Source of the DNA: an archaeon | GTDB taxonomy: Archaea; Nanobdellota; Nanobdellia; Pacearchaeales; GW2011-AR1 | Assembly: GCA_018696115.1 (NCBI GenBank) | Contig: JABHQH010000009.1 | Coordinates: 1-52,066 of the forward strand | DNA: 52,066 bases | Direction of reading: 5' to 3' | Shown: piece after piece, positions 2,019-47,275 of the stretch | Layout of the letters: every line of letters starts with the position of its first letter | Numbering within the stretch: the first letter of the stretch is position 1 | Position numbers and translations under genes: made by a program | Notes under the pieces: generated by a model | Told to the model about the DNA's origin: nothing | What the model saw: only the letters and a program-made list of their open reading frames with translations | Databases searched by the model: none

Positions 2019-2136
2019 TGAGCCTACGGAGATTTGAACTCCGGACCTCTGGCTCTCTTCGAGTGAAGTGAGCTAACGTTCTAGCGAACATCCATCTTAT
2101 AAGACCAGCGCTCTAACCTGGCTGAGCTATAGGCTC
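2019..2136 (-). tRNA. intron-containing tRNA; anticodon loop CUUAUA|A suggests UAU (Ile) or a modified decoding tRNA; ~43-nt intron at canonical 37/38
   Basis: Reverse complement shows acceptor GAGCCTA/TAGGCTC, D stem GCTC/GAGC and anticodon 5' stem CTGGT with loop CTTATA. After a ~43-nt insert comes A+GCCAG (the 3' stem), then T-arm CGGAG-TTCAAAT-CTCCG and discriminator A. Confidence 0.55.
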
Positions 2137-38285: not shown

Positions 38286-38361
38286 GAGCCCAAACAGTCA
38301 GTAAACTGAAAGTTGGGCCCCTGCCTTGGATACTACGTCTTGACCACCCAGTTAATTGGAC

Positions 38362-38823
38362 TTACTTGGGCGGATACAGAATCATAAGAATAACCAGGAA
38401 GAAGCAGACGGATATCACAACAAGCGAAGGAACGCTCGGAATGTAATATCCTTCGAGTCTTTCAATCTCCTGGAAACTGAAGACGCCACGCCCTTTTTCT
38501 CCACAATCCACATGGTACCTGTAACCTTTTTCTGCGCCACCAAAATCCCAATCCCGAATAACGCCTATCTTCCCTTCGGCAGCGGTATCCCGTTGGACGA
38601 TCTTGATTTGATCATTGATGTGATACGCCGGGCCCCACCACCAGCAGAGGAAGTAAACTCCTGCAAGGAGGAGAATCAGGACCGCCCACCCCCGGGGAGA
38701 TATCTCATTCAACTTTTTGGCAACCGCCCTTAGGGGACGGTAAACGACCAGCAAGGCAATGAACCCCCCAATCGTGGCCAACACCTGCCAATGATCACCG
38801 GCTATTTTCAAAAGTTCATCCAT
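38362..38823 (-). CDS. 3-TM membrane protein, paralog family member A
   Basis: Shares NWQVLAT, WWxGPxYxIND, GxIGVIRDW, Y.Y.V.CG and GPYIP.(V/I)P with the three downstream paralogs. AAGGAAG SD upstream. Confidence 0.7.
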   Translation of the reverse strand: MDELLKIAGDHWQVLATIGGFIALLVVYRPLRAVAKKLNEISPRGWAVLILLLAGVYFLCWWWGPAYHINDQIKIVQRDTAAEGKIGVIRDWDFGGAEKGYRYHVDCGEKGRGVFSFQEIERLEGYYIPSVPSLVVISVCFFLVILMILYPPK

Positions 38824-38921
38824 ACGTCACTTCCTTTCATTCTGTCAATTCTCTTTCTTCTAGCTCATGCACACACTGCACGAGTAATGCAAGTAAAAAA
38901 TACTCCCCCTGTCAAGGGCAA

Positions 38922-39377
38922 TTAATCCAACTTATCCCGGACGATCACCAGGAAGCTTCCCAGAATAAATATGATGAAGGATGGAATTCCGGGGATATAG
39001 GGGCCACCCAAACTCCTTATCTCCGCGAACAGAAACTTATGCTTTGCCCCCCCACACTCCACAAAGTAGGAGTAGTGGGCCATTTCAAGTTTCCAATCTC
39101 TGACCACTCCAATTTTCCCGTTGAGCTCGCTTTGCAGTCGCGTAATCTCAACTTCATCATTGGCGCCATAGACTGGGCCCAACCACCAGCTGAAACAATA
39201 AACTATCACTGCAAGGAAAACTATCCCGAAGATCGTCCACATCAGCCACTTTCCGGCTACGCGCCCCCGATCAATAGCTTTTCTTACCAAACGATAGCCC
39301 ACAACCAGAACAGCGCAGGTAGCCAACGTGGCCAGCACTTGCCAATTGTCACAGGCCATTTTCCAAAGATCATTCAT
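38922..39377 (-). CDS. 3-TM membrane protein, paralog B
   Basis: Same conserved motifs. Start set at the Met aligned with the paralogs (MNDLW). GAAAGGAAATGAAGTT lies upstream. Confidence 0.7.
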   Translation of the reverse strand: MNDLWKMACDNWQVLATLATCAVLVVGYRLVRKAIDRGRVAGKWLMWTIFGIVFLAVIVYCFSWWLGPVYGANDEVEITRLQSELNGKIGVVRDWKLEMAHYSYFVECGGAKHKFLFAEIRSLGGPYIPGIPSFIIFILGSFLVIVRDKLD

Positions 39378-39410
39378 AACTTCATTTCCTTTCATTTCGA
39401 TTATCACAAC

Positions 39411-39464
39411 CTCCCAAGGGAGAGCTAGTCATCCGGCCCACTGCCAAACAATCTAGCTCCCCCT
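39411..39464 (-). promoter_or_regulatory. conserved ~54-nt intergenic element, copy 1 (imperfect 11-bp inverted repeat GGGGGAGCTAG...CTAGCTCTCCC with ~30-nt loop)
   Basis: About 85% identical to the copy at 40030-40083. Lies between the paralog C stop and the paralog B start. Confidence 0.5.
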
Positions 39465-39502
39465 TACAATCGACCTCTTAATCGAGAGAACGACAACTAC
39501 GC

Positions 39503-39997
39503 CTAGTCACTCGCGCCTTCTTTCAGCTTCAGGGAATCCATATTCGCGGCGAGAGCTATCAGGCTTCCGATTATCATCAGGATAAGCGGAAAAACACTCG
39601 GGATATAGCAGGGGCCTTCAAACCTTTTGAGTTCCTGGAAGTGGAATTTTCCCAGTTCTTTCGCCCCATAATCCACATGATAGATGAATCCCCCTGGACG
39701 AGGACTTTCCCAATCACGGATTATTCCGACCTTTCCTTCCTCGGGGGTATCTCGTTGGACGATCGTGACCTTTTCGTTGATACCATACACCGGTCCAAGG
39801 CCCCATGCGAGGAAGTAAATCACTGCCGAGACAATTACCATCCATACGAGGGTCTTCAACACCCAACCCGTAGTGAGATTCACATACCTGGAAGCAACCT
39901 TCTTTCCCAAGCGATAAATCACGAAGAGGGAGGCGAAGACAGCCAATGTGGCAAATACCTGCCAGTTGTCGCTCACCATGTTAACAAACTCTTTCAT
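39503..39997 (-). CDS. 3-TM membrane protein, paralog C
   Basis: Same family motifs. GAAAGGAACGAGATATG at the start. Confidence 0.7.
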   Translation of the reverse strand: MKEFVNMVSDNWQVFATLAVFASLFVIYRLGKKVASRYVNLTTGWVLKTLVWMVIVSAVIYFLAWGLGPVYGINEKVTIVQRDTPEEGKVGIIRDWESPRPGGFIYHVDYGAKELGKFHFQELKRFEGPCYIPSVFPLILMIIGSLIALAANMDSLKLKEGASD

Positions 39998-40029
39998 ATC
40001 TCGTTCCTTTCGTTCAATTCATCAAAACC

Positions 40030-40083
40030 CCCAAAAGGGAGAGCTAGTCATCAAGCCCAATGCCCAACAATCTAGCCCTCCCA
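40030..40083 (-). promoter_or_regulatory. conserved intergenic element, copy 2
   Basis: GGGAGAGCTAGTCATCAAGCCCAATGCCCAACAATCTAGCCCTCCC. Confidence 0.5.
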
Positions 40084-40098
40084 AGGGTAACGCCATCG

Positions 40099-40587
40099 TC
40101 AATATCCGAAGTTCGAAGAGGATTTATTCAGGACGGGTAATCGCAAGTAGATCACCACACAAACCCCGACGGCCATTAAAACAAGGATTGGAATGCCCGG
40201 GATATGGGGCCCGTTTAACCTCTTCAGGTGCTCAAAACGGAGGCCGTAGGGTTCATCTCCCTTACAATAAACAGAATACACATAGCCATTGCCCGGAGCG
40301 AGACAATTCCAGGATCTGATTATCCCAGTTTCACCATTTACGTCGCTTCGGGGATAAACTATCTCGACTTCGTCGTTGATATGATACGCCGGACCCCACC
40401 ACCAGGTAAAGAAATAGATCCCGGCTACCACAACAACTGCCAACATGACCGTCTTCAGGAACCATCCACGTGGCAATCCCCGGTACTTGGAAACAACCCT
40501 CCTTACCACACGATAGCCCATCAGCAAGGCGACACATCCTGCCAGGGTGGCAAACACTTGCCAATGTCCAACAATAAACTCTTTCAT
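40099..40587 (-). CDS. 3-TM membrane protein, paralog D
   Basis: Same family motifs. GAAAGGAACGAGTTATG at the start. Confidence 0.7.
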   Translation of the reverse strand: MKEFIVGHWQVFATLAGCVALLMGYRVVRRVVSKYRGLPRGWFLKTVMLAVVVVAGIYFFTWWWGPAYHINDEVEIVYPRSDVNGETGIIRSWNCLAPGNGYVYSVYCKGDEPYGLRFEHLKRLNGPHIPGIPILVLMAVGVCVVIYLRLPVLNKSSSNFGY

Positions 40588-40678
40588 AACTCGTTCCTTT
40601 CATTATCTATCTTCATCCCATCTTGCCCGCACACTATGCACGAATAAAACAAGTAGGAAGTAAGTCTTCAGGCGGCGG

Positions 40679-41968
40679 TCAGGAAGGAGAGGCCAGTTTT
40701 ATCAGCTTGACCTTTATTTCATCCTTGCTATCCCACCCATATTCGGCCGCTTCCGCAAAGAGATCCAGCCACCATTCGAAGTCGCCGTCACCGAGTTCCA
40801 TCAACTTTCCAAGGAAGATTTCTCCGAGATTGTCAGATTCTCCATCTCCGAGCATCTTGTCGTAGGTCTCTTTCCAGAGATTGAAGTCGCTACACTCCAA
40901 CTCTCTGAATATTTCGATTATCCTATCCTCAGAAGGCGAGGAACCCTCTGCGTTTGTGAAGAACTCCCACCATTTGTCCGGGCCCCAATTCCTGGGTCGT
41001 TCTTCTATCTGGGTGAGGATCAGTCTTTGCCTGTCATGATCTCCATCAAACATCCCGAAGATAGCCTCCCAGTTCTCAAAGGATACCTCTTCTCTCCCTT
41101 CGAGTCTTTTAATGAGGGCATCACACATATTTTCCCAGCCATTATCGTTTGCTTCTTCCAGGAATCCTTTCAATGTCTCGAAATCTTCCTGGGGGAGTTC
41201 GGCCACATTTTCTTCGAGAGCATTGTCCGTAGTTTCATCATCGGCCACCCTATAGGCCTCCATGAGTTGCCCCATGGTGGTCACTCTCTTGACCAGTTCT
41301 TCACCGATCCTTTCCTCGTGCTGATTGTAGCAGTCCCCACGAAGGGTGCACAACTGTTCAAGGGAGGGATTGGAAGATAAGAGCAGATCGAGGAAAAGAT
41401 CTGCGACCATCTTCTTGATGCCCATCTCTTCCTTATCGGCCTCTCCAGATTCTGTATAGATGGTTTTTGCCTGATCGAAAGTTTGGATGGATCCGCCTAC
41501 ATTTTCGAGAGCGGTCTGTCTGAGGGGAGATCCAGCTTCAGCCACTTCAAGGACAGACTCCCAATCTTCCGGAGTCCTTGCCCTTCGTGAGATCTGCTCC
41601 AGGACTGAACTTTTGAGCGAGGCGTCTCCAGACCTTATGGCCGCATGGCAAAGCTTGATCCAGTTTCCGAATTCCGATCCCACACGTTGGAGCATCTGCG
41701 TTCCAGCGTGCCGGTGAAGCTCTGACAAATCTTCATTGCCTATCGAGAGTTCGAACAGTCTGAGGTTATTCTCGAATGTTGAAGCCAATCTGGCGGCTTC
41801 ACCAAGGGCGCGTTTCTTGAGGGGCTCTTCGGCCTCTCCACTGTAGTACACCTCGATCCACCGATCGAAATTCAGATCGGGGGGAGGCGCGTTATCTTGC
41901 ACATTCCAGATTGCAAGAGCTTTCATTACTCCGACCTGGGCGGCCAGAGATTCAAATGACATTTCCAT
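40679..41968 (-). CDS. all-alpha (HEAT/TPR-like?) acidic Trp-rich protein, hypothetical
   Basis: 429 aa. No TM helix, no nucleotide-binding motif. Confidence 0.45.
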   Translation of the reverse strand: MEMSFESLAAQVGVMKALAIWNVQDNAPPPDLNFDRWIEVYYSGEAEEPLKKRALGEAARLASTFENNLRLFELSIGNEDLSELHRHAGTQMLQRVGSEFGNWIKLCHAAIRSGDASLKSSVLEQISRRARTPEDWESVLEVAEAGSPLRQTALENVGGSIQTFDQAKTIYTESGEADKEEMGIKKMVADLFLDLLLSSNPSLEQLCTLRGDCYNQHEERIGEELVKRVTTMGQLMEAYRVADDETTDNALEENVAELPQEDFETLKGFLEEANDNGWENMCDALIKRLEGREEVSFENWEAIFGMFDGDHDRQRLILTQIEERPRNWGPDKWWEFFTNAEGSSPSEDRIIEIFRELECSDFNLWKETYDKMLGDGESDNLGEIFLGKLMELGDGDFEWWLDLFAEAAEYGWDSKDEIKVKLIKLASPS

Positions 41969-42035
41969 AAGGATTACCTTCTTTCGTATTATTCTACTTT
42001 TTCGATCTATCCCAACACGATGTCAGGACTCTGTT

Positions 42036-42551
42036 TTATCCGTCACTCCGACCTTCAATTTTCTCCAGCTTTTGGATGACTGCACGCCGGACTTCGCTTC
42101 CCTGGGGGGTTCCGAAATAGACATAGGTGGCCTCCCGTTCCCCTTCAGCTTGTTCGAAGTCTTGCCAGCACTGCGGGATCCATTTTTGGCGGATAGCCCT
42201 CCTTATATCTGAATCTTCCGGAGTGCAAAGATACAGGATCTTCAGTCCCAGTGCACTGTTGGCAGCAAGGCACCTGGACAAATGGATCCTTTCAATGCGA
42301 TTCACAAACTCCGGACTGACCTTCCCGCCGAGGATAACACGAAGGTAGAGCTCGAAAAGCTGTTCCTTGTTCTTCGCATTTTCCAAATGGCCGATAAAGG
42401 TCAGATCATCCATCTCTTGGAGATCCTGAACAAGGCGAATCTGGGAATTCATTAAAGCTTCCCTCGAAAAGCTTTCTTCCTTCACCGAACACCCCGGAGA
42501 CGTCAGGGATCCACAACAGACAACAACCAACAACCAACAAGGCAGTTTCAT
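42036..42551 (-). CDS. putative lipoprotein, hypothetical
   Basis: Start taken at MKLPCWLLVVVCCGSLTSPGC, a signal peptide with an L-x-x-C lipobox. The ORF could extend to 42620. Confidence 0.5.
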   Translation of the reverse strand: MKLPCWLLVVVCCGSLTSPGCSVKEESFSREALMNSQIRLVQDLQEMDDLTFIGHLENAKNKEQLFELYLRVILGGKVSPEFVNRIERIHLSRCLAANSALGLKILYLCTPEDSDIRRAIRQKWIPQCWQDFEQAEGEREATYVYFGTPQGSEVRRAVIQKLEKIEGRSDG

Positions 42552-42648
42552 AACAATTCTCCCTTCAGAGAACAAGGAACAGCGCCGGGCACCCCCCAAT
42601 AAAACATTACCCGGCCCCATTCAGGTTAGTGAAAAATCAGGCCATCAA

Positions 42649-43239
42649 TTATTCGGCATCGGCAGTCGGAATGTCGCTGAGATCGATCGGAGATCCGTCC
42701 GCTCCGCGGTAGGTCCTGAGGAGGATGTCCTCTTCGATGTGGCGTTCGTCGCCATTCGGAAGTTTGATTCGGATTACTCCTTCCTTATCGCGGATAGCGA
42801 GAACCACGTCTTTTTCGTCACGCTTCACGATCCCAGTATAGTCATCGACCATGCGACCAGCCGGCGAAAGATGATCATCCACGAAGTCAGTGTCGGCAGT
42901 GTACTGGTCACCGCACCCCTGCTCGCCTGCTGCTATAAGGATATCGTCCAGGTTATCTACCGTGGGCGGAGTCTCCATCATATCCAGAAGTGCCTCGGCG
43001 ATTTCGCCAGGAACTTCGTTGAGGATAACAACGCCTTTTTCACCGTCTGCGCCCTGCCAGGTTCCGTCGCCGTCACCGTCAGTTTCGTTGAGAACGAGAA
43101 TCACCGGACGGTCGTTATTCTGGCCATATCCGGAGACTTCCATATCCTGTTCGAATGCCACAACGACATCACTCGCGGGAACCTTGAAGATAAGCTTGCG
43201 GGTTGCGGAAACGATTTTAAGACCTTTATCAAAATTCAC
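42649..43239 (-). CDS. acidic Asp/Gly-rich protein, hypothetical
   Basis: 196 aa. DGDGDG stretch and possible Ca-binding loops. Confidence 0.4.
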   Translation of the reverse strand: MNFDKGLKIVSATRKLIFKVPASDVVVAFEQDMEVSGYGQNNDRPVILVLNETDGDGDGTWQGADGEKGVVILNEVPGEIAEALLDMMETPPTVDNLDDILIAAGEQGCGDQYTADTDFVDDHLSPAGRMVDDYTGIVKRDEKDVVLAIRDKEGVIRIKLPNGDERHIEEDILLRTYRGADGSPIDLSDIPTADAE

Positions 43240-43492
43240 AATATTCTCCTTTCTCCGTTTTGGGGAGAAAAAAAGTAAGGCCCTAACTCTTGTCAGAACC
43301 TAAAGATTCCAGCAACTTGCCAGGATCCTTTTAATGTAATGCCATGTTACGTCCCAAAAACTTATCTCCTAATCCTGAGGAGTGTTTCGAATGTGCTTCA
43401 CAAAACTCCAGATCGCAATCACTCCAGAAAAAGTGGCCCCCGAAGCGATTAAAATCCCTGCAATCTGCTGTGTCATTTCTACTCCTTTCTGG

Positions 43493-44596
43493 TCAGCTCT
43501 CCTTTGAGCCAAACCATTTACGATAGATTTCATCGTATTTACCGCTTTTCCGAATCTTCAACAAGGCGCGGTTAATCTCTTCTCGAAGATTGCTTCCTTC
43601 AGGTACGGCGAAGCCGTAGTATTGTTTGTCGAAAATCGGACCGACAACCCCCACTTCATCCGGGTGTTGCTGGGCGAAGAAAAGGACACTTGGGGAATCG
43701 AAGACAACCGCATCAACCTTCTCCTTAAGCAGGAGATCATACGATTCTTGGATAGAAGGTGTAGCAACCACCTTAGCTCCAAGGCCCTTAAGTGTCGTAA
43801 CACTTGTAGTGCCTTGTGCAGTGGCGACCGTCTTTCCTCTGAGATCTCCCGGATGGTTGATCACCGATTCAATGGCCTCGATTTCCCGGACCGTAAAAGC
43901 TGTGATGATCGGAGCAGAGACAAGGCCGACAATAACGCAGCCGTTGAGGAAGAGGGGGATGGTTAAGAGCCTTCCCCAAGTCTTCTTGGGATAGATATCT
44001 CCAAAACCTATGGTGGTCTTAATTGCCCAGACACACCAGCATGCATCGAAGAATCCTTTCCAATCGTCTGCGATTACGTCTGCACCCTGTTCAGCCCGCC
44101 ACAACAAGAATCCCCAAACGAAGAATCCAATGAAGAGGATTCCCAAAAGCCCTGCCATCTCCCAGTTGAACAGTCTTCGGAAAATAGACGAGAGGATCGA
44201 GGCCTTTTTCTTCTGACCTTTGACAACGATCCTCAATCCGGAATTCATATAGTGGTGTGAGAAGTCGAAATTCTCTTCCCGATCCGCGGTAATAAAGATC
44301 CCGGACACTGCCACATCAACCTTCCCTGCCTTAACATCCTGCAGAAGTTGGTCAAATTCCGAACCCTTGTACTGCTTGTACTCAATCTCCCAGTTGAGTT
44401 CTCCAGCAATCGCCTCAATTATTTCGATGTCTGATCCCGAAAGGCCAGACTTCGTTGAGGAACTTTCCATCACGCATGGGCGGAAGATTCCCGCACCAAT
44501 AGTGATTTTCTTTTTTTCCTGCGCTTGCACCGGGGAAACGACTGCCGCCAGAACAAGTACACCAATAACAATCAGAAAGGCGGTTTTTTGCTTCAC
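43493..44596 (-). CDS. GluR0-type ligand-gated potassium channel (prokaryotic ionotropic glutamate receptor homolog: SBP lobe1 - M1 - P-loop - M2 - SBP lobe2)
   Basis: Signal peptide, then a periplasmic-binding-protein family-3 lobe. Then TM helix, pore helix plus TTIGFGD selectivity-filter-like motif, and a second TM helix. The protein ends with the second SBP lobe (YGFAVPEGS). Confidence 0.7.
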   Translation of the reverse strand: MKQKTAFLIVIGVLVLAAVVSPVQAQEKKKITIGAGIFRPCVMESSSTKSGLSGSDIEIIEAIAGELNWEIEYKQYKGSEFDQLLQDVKAGKVDVAVSGIFITADREENFDFSHHYMNSGLRIVVKGQKKKASILSSIFRRLFNWEMAGLLGILFIGFFVWGFLLWRAEQGADVIADDWKGFFDACWCVWAIKTTIGFGDIYPKKTWGRLLTIPLFLNGCVIVGLVSAPIITAFTVREIEAIESVINHPGDLRGKTVATAQGTTSVTTLKGLGAKVVATPSIQESYDLLLKEKVDAVVFDSPSVLFFAQQHPDEVGVVGPIFDKQYYGFAVPEGSNLREEINRALLKIRKSGKYDEIYRKWFGSKES

Positions 44597-44883
44597 CTTG
44601 AGCTCCTTATATCGGAGGTTATTGAAATAGAAAAAACATCATTTCTTTTTTCGCTGTCTTCTCCCCCCTCCCGAAGATAAGCGTTCCATGAGCCTTCCCC
44701 AGATTTGTTCAGCTAAGCTCATCGCCTCGGCATCCTTTCTAGGATCGGCAAAAGCCTTACCTGCAAATCTTCTGGGCAAGTTCCATGTTTGTTGTTCTGA
44801 GCTATTCATTGCTCGTTCCTTTCTCCACGCCTAAGGTGGGGATTTATTGGTCAATCAACGTCTTGCGGACCGACTTGCAGGCA

Positions 44884-45384
44884 TTAGTCCACGTATTTAC
44901 CAACAATCTCCATGAACATGGATGTAACATAGTAACTTCTTCCATTGTACCCAAGGAAACCCCGATCCTTCAGGGTGAGGATAGTTCTCTCAGTAAATTC
45001 CTCACCCGCATCCTTGGCCTCAATGAGTTCTTCGAGGGAAAATGACACCCATCCATCTTCCTTGTTGTTTTTAAGGACCCAGATGATGTTCTCAACAGCA
45101 TCTTTCTCGCCCTGGTCTTTCCATGAAGGATCCCCGAGGGCATTATCTGCATTGACATCGCTCGGGAGGAACTTTTTGCTTTCTTCGATGACCTTCTTGC
45201 CGATAGAGGCCAAGTTCGTTCGGTTTACTCCCGATCGGAAGATTATTCCTGCATATTTCACAATTTCGGCGCTTTCGAAGACTTCGTCATCGGAGGTTAA
45301 CAAAGAAGCTTCGGCCAGGTATACTGCTCCTGCAGCTTCATTCAACAACCCCTCCTCATCGCCAGAGAGTTCTATTTTATGCAT
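44884..45384 (-). CDS. hypothetical protein
   Basis: 166-aa ORF, acidic. Confidence 0.4.
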   Translation of the reverse strand: MHKIELSGDEEGLLNEAAGAVYLAEASLLTSDDEVFESAEIVKYAGIIFRSGVNRTNLASIGKKVIEESKKFLPSDVNADNALGDPSWKDQGEKDAVENIIWVLKNNKEDGWVSFSLEELIEAKDAGEEFTERTILTLKDRGFLGYNGRSYYVTSMFMEIVGKYVD

Positions 45385-45506
45385 GTGCTTTTCTCCTTAC
45401 GTCTCGGTTATCTTGATATAGAAAAAGAACGAGGCCGGGCACCTCCCCAATAAATCACTACCCGGCCCCATTCAACCAATCCCTCAATATTCAACTATTG
45501 CTTTGT

Positions 45507-45764
45507 TCAGTCGTCGCAACCACCGCCGTCATCGCCGCCGCTATCGTAGTCGCTGTCATCGGAGCACGAGGATTCCGGTTCGGGCTCGGGATCCGGCGCA
45601 GGGGCAGGTTCCGGAGCGGGTTCGGGCATGGGTTCGGGCTCGGGAGCCTGCGGGGTTTCATCCAGTTCAACAGTCTGCTGACTGGTAACAGTTCCCGAAT
45701 CGGCTTCTCCGGATCCGGTGTCCTCAACGTTAGTTTTCACGGCCTGGTCATTCGTTTCAGTCAT
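45507..45764 (-). CDS. small acidic Pro/Glu-rich (PEPEP repeat) protein, hypothetical
   Basis: Start at MTETNDQ is preceded by AAAGGAAAGG. Three overlapping ORFs arise from the GC-rich repeat here. The minus-strand frame is chosen because of the SD and co-orientation with its neighbours. Confidence 0.35.
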   Translation of the reverse strand: MTETNDQAVKTNVEDTGSGEADSGTVTSQQTVELDETPQAPEPEPMPEPAPEPAPAPDPEPEPESSCSDDSDYDSGGDDGGGCDD

Positions 45765-45863
45765 TGTACCTTTCCTTTCTTGGTACTGTGTAAAAAACCT
45801 GCGTCGTAACATTACGACGACTATTGGTACTGCAATTCAACATTCAACTATCGAGATTCGAGT

Positions 45864-46439
45864 TTAGCCCTCTTTTACGAGGACGCGGATGTTTCTGTCA
45901 TCCACCGCATGGCCGAGGTGAGCTTCGTAGCTATTACTGTCCCATCGTTCGATTCCCATGCAGAGGGAATCGTTCGAATTGTAGTAGTCCCAGTAATAGT
46001 ACCTCTCACCGTTTCCAGAGCGGTCGCGGTAGAAGGTGGCATCATTATCGTCATCATAGCGGAATAACTCTGCACCATAACTGAAGTCTTCTTCTTCTTC
46101 CAGATCTCTTGAACCGATGCCAAGAGCTTGAAGCTTCAGAAGTTCCGTATAGATGTAGATCTCGATCGAGTCGTCCTCTTCCCACTCGAGGTAGCAGATC
46201 TTGCCACTTACGAGCGAAGTAAGGCGCAACTCGAACCACTCGGTGGTTCTGCCGTCCCATGTTTCGGAGTAGCGATTCATCTCATCGGCGTAATACACTT
46301 CGTTGCCGATCTGGATGTAACCACCGACCCTTACGTCTATAATCGATATCTGAATCTGATCGGCTTCCGACATGGGCACAGGCATTTGGCGGATGAGTCT
46401 TAGGCGTTCGGCCTGTGAGACTGTTTTGTATGTTCTCAT
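45864..46439 (-). CDS. hypothetical protein (beta-rich; possibly DUF4178-like)
   Basis: 191 aa. Aromatic/acidic-rich. No catalytic motif. Confidence 0.4.
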   Translation of the reverse strand: MRTYKTVSQAERLRLIRQMPVPMSEADQIQISIIDVRVGGYIQIGNEVYYADEMNRYSETWDGRTTEWFELRLTSLVSGKICYLEWEEDDSIEIYIYTELLKLQALGIGSRDLEEEEDFSYGAELFRYDDDNDATFYRDRSGNGERYYYWDYYNSNDSLCMGIERWDSNSYEAHLGHAVDDRNIRVLVKEG

Positions 46440-46451
46440 TTTGAAGCCTCC

Positions 46452-47114
46452 TTAGGCTTGTACTACCTGTTCAAGGAATTTGGCTTCTGTTGTAGCCGAA
46501 GCGAAGTCACCATCCCTAGCCTTGTCAGCTATGGAAACGATACGTTCCTGGAGAGCCGTGAGCGCCGAGACCGTTGCTTCCTTGGCTCGAATGCGCTCTT
46601 CCGCAGCCAGTTTTACAAAGAGGCGGATCTGCTTGGGGAGGTAATCCTCAATGACACGCCCGAGTGTGATGTTAACTTGGGATCCCAGGTTCGTCGGATC
46701 AACCTCTTCAACGATCCAGGTCAGCTGATCCACGATATCGTCAACCAGGGAGATGATAGCCTCATCCCGTAAGGGATCATTCATCACCTGAAGGCTAATC
46801 GCAGCCAGTTGATCAATCCGCTTTGCGGAGTTATCCGGAGGCAGATCTTCAGGGGCGGCGACAGCAGGAGGCCCAGTGCCCGATGGCGATTGAATCTTGA
46901 CTTTCGGGGTTTCGGGCTCCGGACTTTTCTTAACCACAGCTTCCTGGTCCTTCAAGTACTTCTTGTACGTCAGAAGGCCCCCAATGATCGCAGTCAGGAA
47001 AGCACTACCGATGGCGGTGCCCAAATAGAGGGATCCGAATATCAGCAATGCAATGAGCGTGAGTATATACACTCCCGCAAAGTTAATCAAACCGAGTTTT
47101 ACGTACTTGTTCAA
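46452..47114 (-). CDS. 2-TM membrane protein with Pro-rich linker and C-terminal helical domain (possibly XpaC/TelA-like)
   Basis: Two N-terminal TM helices, a PEPETPKV linker, and a ~120-aa helical domain. Confidence 0.4.
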   Translation of the reverse strand: MNKYVKLGLINFAGVYILTLIALLIFGSLYLGTAIGSAFLTAIIGGLLTYKKYLKDQEAVVKKSPEPETPKVKIQSPSGTGPPAVAAPEDLPPDNSAKRIDQLAAISLQVMNDPLRDEAIISLVDDIVDQLTWIVEEVDPTNLGSQVNITLGRVIEDYLPKQIRLFVKLAAEERIRAKEATVSALTALQERIVSIADKARDGDFASATTEAKFLEQVVQA

Positions 47115-47275
47115 AACAGTACTCCTTAACTAAAGTTCTTCGAAATATTCGGGGCAACCAGCCCAAGGCAAGCCTTCTCATCGAAAGGTAGAAACAAGCA
47201 CCTCCCAACAAGAAACAAGGACTGGCTGCCCCACACAACTACCTCAACATCAAATCATCCGGTGGCTAGGGGAAA

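Follow-up and report, generated by a model that had tools for sequence, protein, structure and literature searches.

A predicted GluR0-type glutamate receptor-like K+ channel in a flexible high-GC island of a marine DPANN archaeon

Layout of the channel gene and its product

In prokaryotes, channels of the GluR0 type form the link from K+ channels to synaptic glutamate receptors. The window analyzed here, the whole 52,066-nt stretch of archaeal contig JABHQH010000009.1 (GenBank assembly GCA_018696115.1), contains at 43493..44596 on the reverse strand a gene that very likely encodes a subunit of a GluR0-type prokaryotic ionotropic glutamate receptor (iGluR). The product appears in public records only as a "transporter substrate-binding domain-containing protein" and is under-annotated. 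A first-pass annotation, made from the sequence alone, had described it as a GluR0-like receptor/K+ channel with a signal peptide, a first ligand-binding lobe (S1), a transmembrane (TM) helix M1, a TTIGFGD pore loop, a helix M2, and a second lobe (S2) at the C terminus. Every element of this layout is present, at the following coordinates, which were checked by translation.

43493..44596, reverse strand: coding sequence (CDS) of the predicted GluR0-type channel subunit; 367 aa, GTG start, TGA stop (open reading frame [ORF] list)
44603..44608, reverse strand: Shine-Dalgarno (SD)-like AAGGAG, 6 nt upstream of the GTG (sequence)
44522..44596, reverse strand: predicted signal peptide, aa 1-25, an h-region followed by a putative cleavage site between VQA and QE (hydropathy peak of 2.65; model helix 2-19)
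44207..44521, reverse strand: S1 lobe of the ligand-binding domain (LBD), aa 26-130, with residues of note F38, F81, G99, F101 (unusual), T103, and R106 (alignments to 2pyy and to the glutamine-binding protein GlnBP, 1ggg; column statistics)
44093..44197, reverse strand: pre-M1 helix (aa 134-142) and M1 TM helix (aa 145-168) (hydropathy, model helices, KcsA alignment)
43997..44062, reverse strand: pore helix and K+ selectivity filter, aa 179-200 (translation; model helix 179-195; alignment to KcsA TTVGYGD)
43997..44017, reverse strand: filter T-T-I-G-F-G-D, aa 194-200 (translation)
43886..43981, reverse strand: M2 inner helix, aa 206-237 (hydropathy; model helix 206-237; KcsA alignment)
43496..43879, reverse strand: S2 lobe, aa 240-367, stop codon directly after, with residues of note G262-T263-T264-S265, F299, and D300 (alignments to 2pyy, 1ggg, and 4zv1)

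Hydropathy analysis found three hydrophobic segments and no others: the signal peptide (aa 1-25), M1 (~145-167), and M2 (~207-236). The stretch between M1 and M2 reads WKGFFDACWCVWAIK-TTIGFGD, a pore helix followed by a canonical K+ filter. The protein ends 5 residues past the S2 motif W361-F362, with no third TM helix and no amino-terminal domain.

Sequence and structure matches to GluR0, K+ channels, and AMPA receptors

Four Pfam families matched the protein above their gathering cutoffs: SBP_bac_3 (E = 1.5e-29), Ion_trans_2 (7e-11), Lig_chan-Glu_bd (1.7e-8), and Ion_trans (1.1e-5). The SBP_bac_3 match covers aa 47-363 with the pore lying inside it, so that the LBD is split into S1 and S2. 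The top NCBIfam match was GlnH (E = 2.5e-40), yet it reached only 139 bits against an equivalog cutoff of 303, and likeness to GlnH/ArtJ-type binding proteins was sub-threshold throughout. Identification as a substrate-binding protein (SBP) of a GlnH/ArtJ-type ABC transporter was rejected on this score, on the interruption of the domain by a K+-channel pore, and on the lack of an ABC permease or ATPase among the neighboring genes.

Among sequences in the PDB, the best match was 2pyy, the Nostoc punctiforme GluR0 ligand-binding core (E = 1.1e-35, both lobes), followed by glutamine-binding proteins, Synechocystis GluR0 (1ii5/1iit), and AMPA receptors, which align to aa 85-365 as one stretch with the pore within it. 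Each lobe also aligns separately to 2pyy, 1ggg, and 4zv1. When the pore module alone (118 residues) was searched, KcsA matched over M1-P-M2 (E = 6.5e-11), ahead of any iGluR. An AlphaFold2 monomer model built on 50 relatives has a mean pLDDT (predicted local distance difference test score) of 93.5 and a pTM (predicted template modeling score) of 0.80; it contains two alpha/beta lobes and helices 134-142, 145-168, 179-195, and 206-237. Foldseek aligned the whole chain (~370-385 columns) to AMPA-receptor structures comprising the LBD and TM domain (E ~ 5e-25). The sequence and fold matches thus uphold the GluR0-like assignment, in which a K+-channel pore interrupts an amino acid-binding protein of the periplasm. 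The hydrophobic segments might have belonged to an unrelated permease, as the first-pass annotation had allowed; they instead gave Ion_trans_2, Ion_trans, and KcsA matches, and no permease fold was seen.

The GluR0 design is well known, and the identification is in this respect incremental and not surprising. Ger et al. 2010 defined a "Group 1" with two TM helices and a P-loop that bears a K+-channel filter, all lying between S1 and S2, and the archaeal protein fits this definition exactly (IPR013099/Ion_trans_2) (PMC2950845). That survey reported neither Group 1 nor Group 2 channels from archaea (PMC2950845), whereas the host here is an archaeon. The family also corresponds to the prokaryotic branch of the GIC family of TCDB.

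Several known systems share parts of this architecture. The KcsA match (e.g., PDB 1k4c, 3ogc) extends over ~100 residues and includes M1, the pore helix, the T-x-G-[YF]-G-D filter, and M2; KcsA differs in having no LBD and the opposite membrane orientation (PMC13099474). AMPA receptors GluA1-4 (e.g., PDB 7oce, 9hpk) share the whole-chain fold and the pre-M1 helix, but only ~20% sequence identity at a TM-score of ~0.53; the archaeal protein lacks their amino-terminal domain, M4 helix, and C-terminal domain, and a K+-selective-type filter replaces the eukaryotic pore loop. Both LBD lobes align to Escherichia coli GlnH/GlnBP (PDB 1ggg/1wdn; E = 2.3e-27), in which, unlike in the archaeal protein, the domain is not interrupted by a channel pore. 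With N. punctiforme 2pyy, an isolated LBD construct, the archaeal protein has in common both lobes and the motifs "ITAxRExNFDFS" and "DAVVFDxP."

GluR0 of Synechocystis sp. PCC 6803 (slr1257) was reportedly described by Chen et al. in 1999, and 1ii5, 1iit, and 1iiw are said to be its LBD structures. It resembles the archaeal protein in its signal peptide, S1, M1-P-M2 with a K+ signature, and S2, in the absence of an amino-terminal domain and a third TM helix, and in the conserved Arg and Asp ligand contacts. By phmmer, significant alignment is limited to the S2 lobe (E = 3.8e-16), and the host is a cyanobacterium. The filter of the Synechocystis channel is of the GYG type, versus TTIGFGD here (PMC13099474). 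Synechocystis GluR0 has an inverted topology and resides in the plasma membrane, its K+ uptake has been shown experimentally, and it acts in the control of K+ and cell volume; this first physiological role of a GluR0-type channel, in a cyanobacterium, was reported only in 2026 (PMC13099474).

Family size, conservation, and the ligand pocket

When 1.84 billion representatives were searched exhaustively with HMMER, 556 family clusters were recovered (50% identity, E <= 1e-30), and the best 150 are nearly all full-length (330-420 aa). Relatives were confirmed 310 times among 185,579 species genomes. The GluR0-type design is thus uncommon, but it is well populated, and the first-pass statement that such channels are uncommon holds only in a relative sense. 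Conservation was counted in an alignment of 148 family representatives drawn from the best 150 clusters. A K+-type filter is present in 115 of the 148 (TTVGYGD in 43, STVGYGD in 35, TTIGFGD in 12), and none has a C-terminal TM extension. Arg occupies position 106 in 146 representatives, and Asp occupies position 300 in all of them. The filter has degenerated (NGGFEER and similar) in more distant relatives, the "Group 2" of Ger et al.

Two observations on the family were made in passing. A bacterial subgroup with a TTVGYGD filter (alignment A1: P0012, P0014, P0019, P0020, P0022, and P0025-P0027) has lost the ligand-binding Arg; "ITHEG/F/W/A" replaces "IT..R," and "EFT" replaces "EGT" in the S2 loop, and the ligand chemistry of these proteins may differ. 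A full-length GluR0-like gene with 33% identity to the archaeal protein (L177, 8001..9056) lies on a 186-kb IMG/VR contig classified as viral (IMGVR_UViG_3300009514_000888).

Register in the ligand pocket was set by aligning the channel with E. coli GlnBP (1ggg) and was confirmed with 2pyy. In iGluRs and GlnBP, a Ser or Thr two residues before the T-x-x-R motif (T480 in GluA2, T70 in GlnBP) contacts the backbone of the ligand, and channel position 101 is its equivalent; K115 is a side-chain contact in GlnBP.

F81 of the channel: F50 of GlnBP (alignment with 1ggg, as for all rows)
G99: G68
F101: T70
T103: T72
R106: R75
A260: K115
T263: T118
F299: H156
D300: D157

In prokaryotic iGluRs, the ligand is contacted at its alpha-carboxylate by the Arg of S1 and at its alpha-amino group by the Asp of S2 (PMC2950845). 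The first-pass annotation had proposed inspecting an Arg/Thr/Asp triad, of which two members, R106 and D300, are retained; the Thr/Ser is replaced by Phe101. At the latter position 2pyy has Ser, and it has Thr where the archaeal channel has A260; Synechocystis GluR0 likewise differs from the archaeal channel at Phe101. Sequencing error does not explain the substitution, since F101 is identical in every independent assembly. From the residues retained, the ligand would probably still be an alpha-amino acid, and altered specificity or affinity through Phe101 is a real possibility. A natural Thr/Ser-to-Phe variant of this kind is potentially informative on ligand specificity.

The archaeal host and the high-GC island

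The first 38 kb of the window, with a G+C content (GC) of ~0.38, encode aIF5B, an archaeal-type glutamyl-tRNA synthetase (GluRS), CTP synthase, a YGR210-like Obg GTPase, TrmB, and a protein of the PEP synthase/PPDK family (Pfam PPDK_N and PEP-utilizers). An Rfam search found a tRNA of 118 nt at 2019..2136 on the reverse strand (full model covered, 58 bits) that ARAGORN did not report; its length implies an intron, consistent with an archaeal host. The source MAGs carry the NCBI label "[archaeon]," and one the label "Candidatus Bathyarchaeota." The closest named GluRS sequences (63-69% identity) come from metagenome-assembled genomes (MAGs) of Pacearchaeota/Nanoarchaeota and therefore point to a DPANN-like host. 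The channel gene thus resides in a marine DPANN archaeon that is Pacearchaeota/Nanoarchaeota-like. Beyond these core genes lies the following region.

38300..52066, reverse strand: window portion of a flexible high-GC island that spans at least 24 kb (GC step, GC at third codon positions [GC3], recurrent junction)

GC rises from 0.38 to 0.49 at ~38.3 kb, within the spacer that follows the PEP synthase/PPDK-family gene, and it remains high to the end of the window and for at least 10 kb further (L089, 1..10000). GC3 is 0.52-0.61 in island genes and 0.54 in the channel gene, compared with 0.29-0.36 in host core genes. The island genes are all co-oriented and nearly all without family assignment, and many form tandem paralogue pairs. 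The order of PEP synthase/PPDK-family gene, island, and channel gene recurs on contigs of up to 385 kb in at least six independent assemblies (ENA, Logan, NCBI, and JGI), whose contigs are named in differing styles. Because the gene order is the same in independent assemblies, the GC junction is genuine and not a chimera.

The PEP synthase/PPDK-family protein was used to find 80 related DPANN loci, which contain neither the channel gene nor convincing homologues of island proteins. In several related DPANN genomes (L094, L095, L101, L102, and L152), different GC-elevated DNA occupies the equivalent position. These results suggest that the site beside the PEP synthase/PPDK-family gene is a recurrent hotspot for flexible islands. 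A viral or mobile origin of the island was considered and rejected: there were no meaningful PHROG matches, no integrase or transposase family was present among the neighbors scanned, and the island is absent from IMG/VR, where only two distant relatives of the channel were found.

Across 11 assemblies from various samples and sources (including L001-L008, L090, and L091), a 12-kb locus (38300..50100) is virtually identical in DNA sequence. The channel CDS shows zero differences among the 11 independent assemblies, and variation in the locus is restricted to a 166-aa gene (3 single-nucleotide polymorphism columns and 14 indel columns). Differing lengths of neighboring genes in gene tables reflect the start choice of gene callers with the sequence unchanged, and two cluster "variants" of the channel protein reflect a V/M start artifact and a single F112S change.

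Origin of the channel gene

The closest relatives of the channel protein are 51-54% identical to it. The best 80 of the 310 genome matches are all bacterial and include Victivallales, Leptospirales, Gammaproteobacteria, Desulfosarcina, Patescibacteria, cyanobacteria, and Bradyrhizobium, among others. Judged from ORF translations, the nearest named relative is flanked by ordinary bacterial genes (dethiobiotin synthase-like, NagA-like, and a histidine kinase). A neighbor-joining tree, which is a rough guide only, placed the archaeal protein as sister to a small bacterial group within the TTIGFGD subclade. No other archaeal-labeled member was seen in word-indexed single-protein searches, subclade-profile searches, or the GTDB scan, in which most matches were unnamed and the best 80 of 310 were listed. 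A literature search found no report of archaeal GluR0 beyond the 2005 and 2010 surveys.

The gene was most likely acquired horizontally from bacteria, because the best 80 named relatives are bacterial, the nearest lies in a bacterial context, the GC3 of the gene is like that of the island and not that of the host core, and 80 DPANN loci are without it. Transfer would have run from bacteria to the archaeon. An intact GluR0-type copy in a genome-reduced DPANN archaeon widens the known host range of the family, and the locus offers what is probably a clear example of the transfer of a signaling channel from bacteria to archaea into a flexible island.

Proposed mechanism and alternative explanations

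We propose that the Sec signal peptide exports the N terminus and that the lobes S1 and S2 together make up a GlnH/SBP_bac_3-type clamshell outside the cell. The signal peptide, predicted from both sequence and model, is consistent with outside-facing termini as in Synechocystis GluR0. Between the lobes, M1, the re-entrant pore helix with TTIGFGD, and M2 would form a KcsA-like pore, inverted relative to classical K+ channels and, by analogy with Synechocystis GluR0 and eukaryotic iGluRs, assembled from four subunits. An alpha-amino acid would be held by its carboxylate at R106 and by its amino group at D300, and, as the clamshell closed, the resulting pull on the S1-M1 and M2-S2 linkers would open a pathway selective for K+. 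An external chemical cue could thereby be coupled to K+ flux, membrane potential, or cell volume. The tetramer, its topology, its K+ selectivity, its gating by ligand, and the identity of that ligand are predictions from homologous proteins; on this homology, ligand-gated K+ conduction by the archaeal channel is likely.

Several observations weigh against a bacterially derived, amino acid-gated channel that the archaeon maintains. The first-pass annotation had named Lig_chan and SBP_bac_3 as the Pfam families to look for; SBP_bac_3 scored above its cutoff, but PF00060 Lig_chan had no match at E <= 1 in the Pfam scan of the channel protein, the pore of which was recognized solely by models of the K+-channel type. 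According to precomputed annotations, PF00060 is carried by many relatives of the TTVGYGD branch but not by the subclade of the archaeal protein. Position 101 is Thr in 93 and Ser in 49 representatives (142 of 148), with Phe solely in the archaeal channel, and Phe101 could alter, weaken, or redirect ligand binding. The channel gene is known from one archaeal species and may not have been maintained there over evolutionary time; the recovered copies are identical in DNA, which makes dN/dS impossible to compute and leaves purifying selection without support from population data. Other archaeal members may exist.

These points have to be set against three other explanations of the locus. A bacterial fragment misjoined to an archaeal contig in assembly or binning would account for the sharp GC step and for the bacterial relatives among the best 80 of 310 named-genome matches, but not for an identical junction in at least six independent assemblies or for the GC-elevated DNA at the equivalent position in related DPANN genomes. 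The island proteins, moreover, are not recognizably bacterial, and we regard such an artifact as extremely improbable. The gene could also be passenger DNA, recently transferred from bacteria and unexpressed or nonfunctional in the archaeon. The foreign composition of the island, the absence of the channel from the 80 related DPANN loci, its presence in one clonal population with no variation on which selection could be tested, and the substitution of a conserved ligand contact are all compatible with this view. Against it, the ORF is intact and has kept every structural motif, the structure model is very confident, and the sequence was recovered from many samples of different sources; the SD-like motif is also the same as in other island genes, where an AAGGAG-type motif lies 5' of 7 of the 14 annotated gene starts. 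On balance, a nonfunctional passenger is very unlikely.

A third explanation accepts that the GluR0-type K+ channel works but departs in ligand or gating from the classical amino acid model. Phe101 could occupy or remodel the pocket and thereby favor a different small molecule, perhaps one that is smaller or more hydrophobic, or hold the cleft in a permanently closed, ligand-independent state. The rarity of Phe at a position aligned to GlnBP T70, the alignment of A260 to the GlnBP side-chain contact K115, and the presence of F101 in all independent assemblies, which makes the change real, speak for this explanation. However, R106, D300, G99, and the GTTS loop, the binders of alpha-carboxylate and alpha-amino groups, are intact, and the backbone NH of residue 101 would still be able to contact a ligand. 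We therefore consider nonclassical gating or ligand use unlikely while giving it some weight, and we favor a GluR0-type channel gated by an alpha-amino acid.

Neighboring genes and a link to envelope-stress operons

In the first-pass annotation, the channel gene was said to lie next to a lipoprotein gene and a tandem array of membrane-protein genes, with which it might form a ligand-sensing module. The array is present.

38362..40587, reverse strand: four tandem paralogues of 153-164 aa, 36-43% identical to each other
45864..46439, reverse strand: divergent DUF4178-family protein of 191 aa (28% identity, E = 1e-21 by tblastn to the DUF4178 protein of L073, itself verified by Pfam)

At the N terminus the four paralogues share the motif "…HWQVFATL…"; TM segments are predicted in them, and they have no assigned family. 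The product of 42036..42620, a putative lipoprotein at most, has an N-terminal hydrophobic, Cys-rich segment in which no canonical lipobox was seen. The proposed module found no support: these neighbors accompany the channel in none of 80 or more relatives, and spacers of 287 and 253 nt separate the channel gene from the large genes that flank it. When 24 island proteins were compared with 80 bacterial channel loci by tblastn, conserved neighborhood was limited to a single match, the 191-aa protein in L073. This is the only island protein also found near a bacterial channel homologue; a direct Pfam scan of it gave no DUF4178 match.

In L073 (3113..11008), genes for TelA, DUF4178, DUF2617, a 544-aa protein, DUF350, and a Spermine_synth protein are encoded on the same strand, with the channel homologue last. 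In L175 (3084..9293), DUF2617, DUF350, and Spermine_synth genes lie directly upstream of the channel gene (precomputed Pfam), and L011 (4825..11029) contains at least DUF2617 by Pfam and the ~540-aa and Spermine_synth genes by tblastn. Ravi et al. 2024 described DUF4178/DUF350/7TM-spermine-synthase operons as partners of the phage shock protein (PSP) envelope-stress system and related operon variants that carry band-7 proteins and K+ channels; Bacillus subtilis YdjH is, by the same account, a TPM-domain protein and not a DUF4178 protein (PMC11237479). The DUF4178-like neighbor thus weakly links the channel to envelope-stress/polyamine operons, an association seen in 3 of ~83 loci. The literature searched contained no mention of GluR0-type channels in connection with PSP/polyamine envelope-stress operons.

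Two genes upstream of the DUF4178-like gene, a 918-aa acidic protein (47276..50032, reverse strand) matches the major vault protein (MVP) shoulder PF11978 (E = 9e-25) and, weakly, the MVP repeat. It is named "major vault protein" by JGI. An MVP-like protein is unusual in a DPANN archaeon.

Given the weak link to DUF4178/PSP operons, the vault-shoulder protein nearby, and the K+ and volume role of Synechocystis GluR0, the archaeal channel could as plausibly serve ion or envelope homeostasis as chemosensing, if not more so.

A small ORF downstream of the channel gene and other minor features

Immediately downstream of the channel gene are two further candidate features.

43369..43476, reverse strand: candidate 35-aa single-TM microprotein (MTQQIAGILIASGATFSGVIAIWSFVKHIRNTPQD) (sequence; motif specificity; annotated with 35 aa by the gene caller of one assembly, L008)
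43356..43382, reverse strand: stem-loop (CTCCTCAGGATTAGGAG) followed by a T-run, terminator-like, at the end of the small ORF (terminator scan, a pattern match that does not establish function; sequence)

The 35-codon ORF begins 16 nt after the channel stop codon, with the strong SD-like context GAAAGGAG-N5-ATG at its start. Within the island, AGGAG marks gene starts with fair specificity: 7 of its 10 intergenic occurrences lie 5' of annotated starts. The predicted product has one TM helix and a basic C-terminal tail and, by the positive-inside rule, would be oriented N-out/C-in. We tentatively regard the ORF as a candidate species-specific microprotein gene that may be cotranscribed with the channel gene. 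A small TM ORF as a trait of the family was considered and rejected; any ORF of this kind is limited to 2 of 71 relatives, both with unrelated sequences.

A more elaborate scenario, which we consider a long shot, is that a DPANN episymbiont has domesticated a bacterial amino acid-gated K+ channel, with Phe101 retuning the ligand and the cotranscribed 35-aa peptide acting as an auxiliary helix. By analogy, this peptide would resemble M4, the helix present in eukaryotic iGluRs and absent from GluR0. If so, the channel would give the symbiont a means of detecting metabolites released by its host or of withstanding stress from K+ or volume changes, and the adjacent SPFH-like (vault-shoulder) and DUF4178-like proteins of envelope stress might take part.

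At the far end of the window, adjacent paralogues of 494 aa (50549..52033, reverse strand) and 453 aa (L089, 8513..9874) are 38% identical overall. They have an identical 29-residue N terminus (MCPSQDESNIQDDPDVKGDSEVREEVVET), which suggests recent partial gene conversion or duplication between them.

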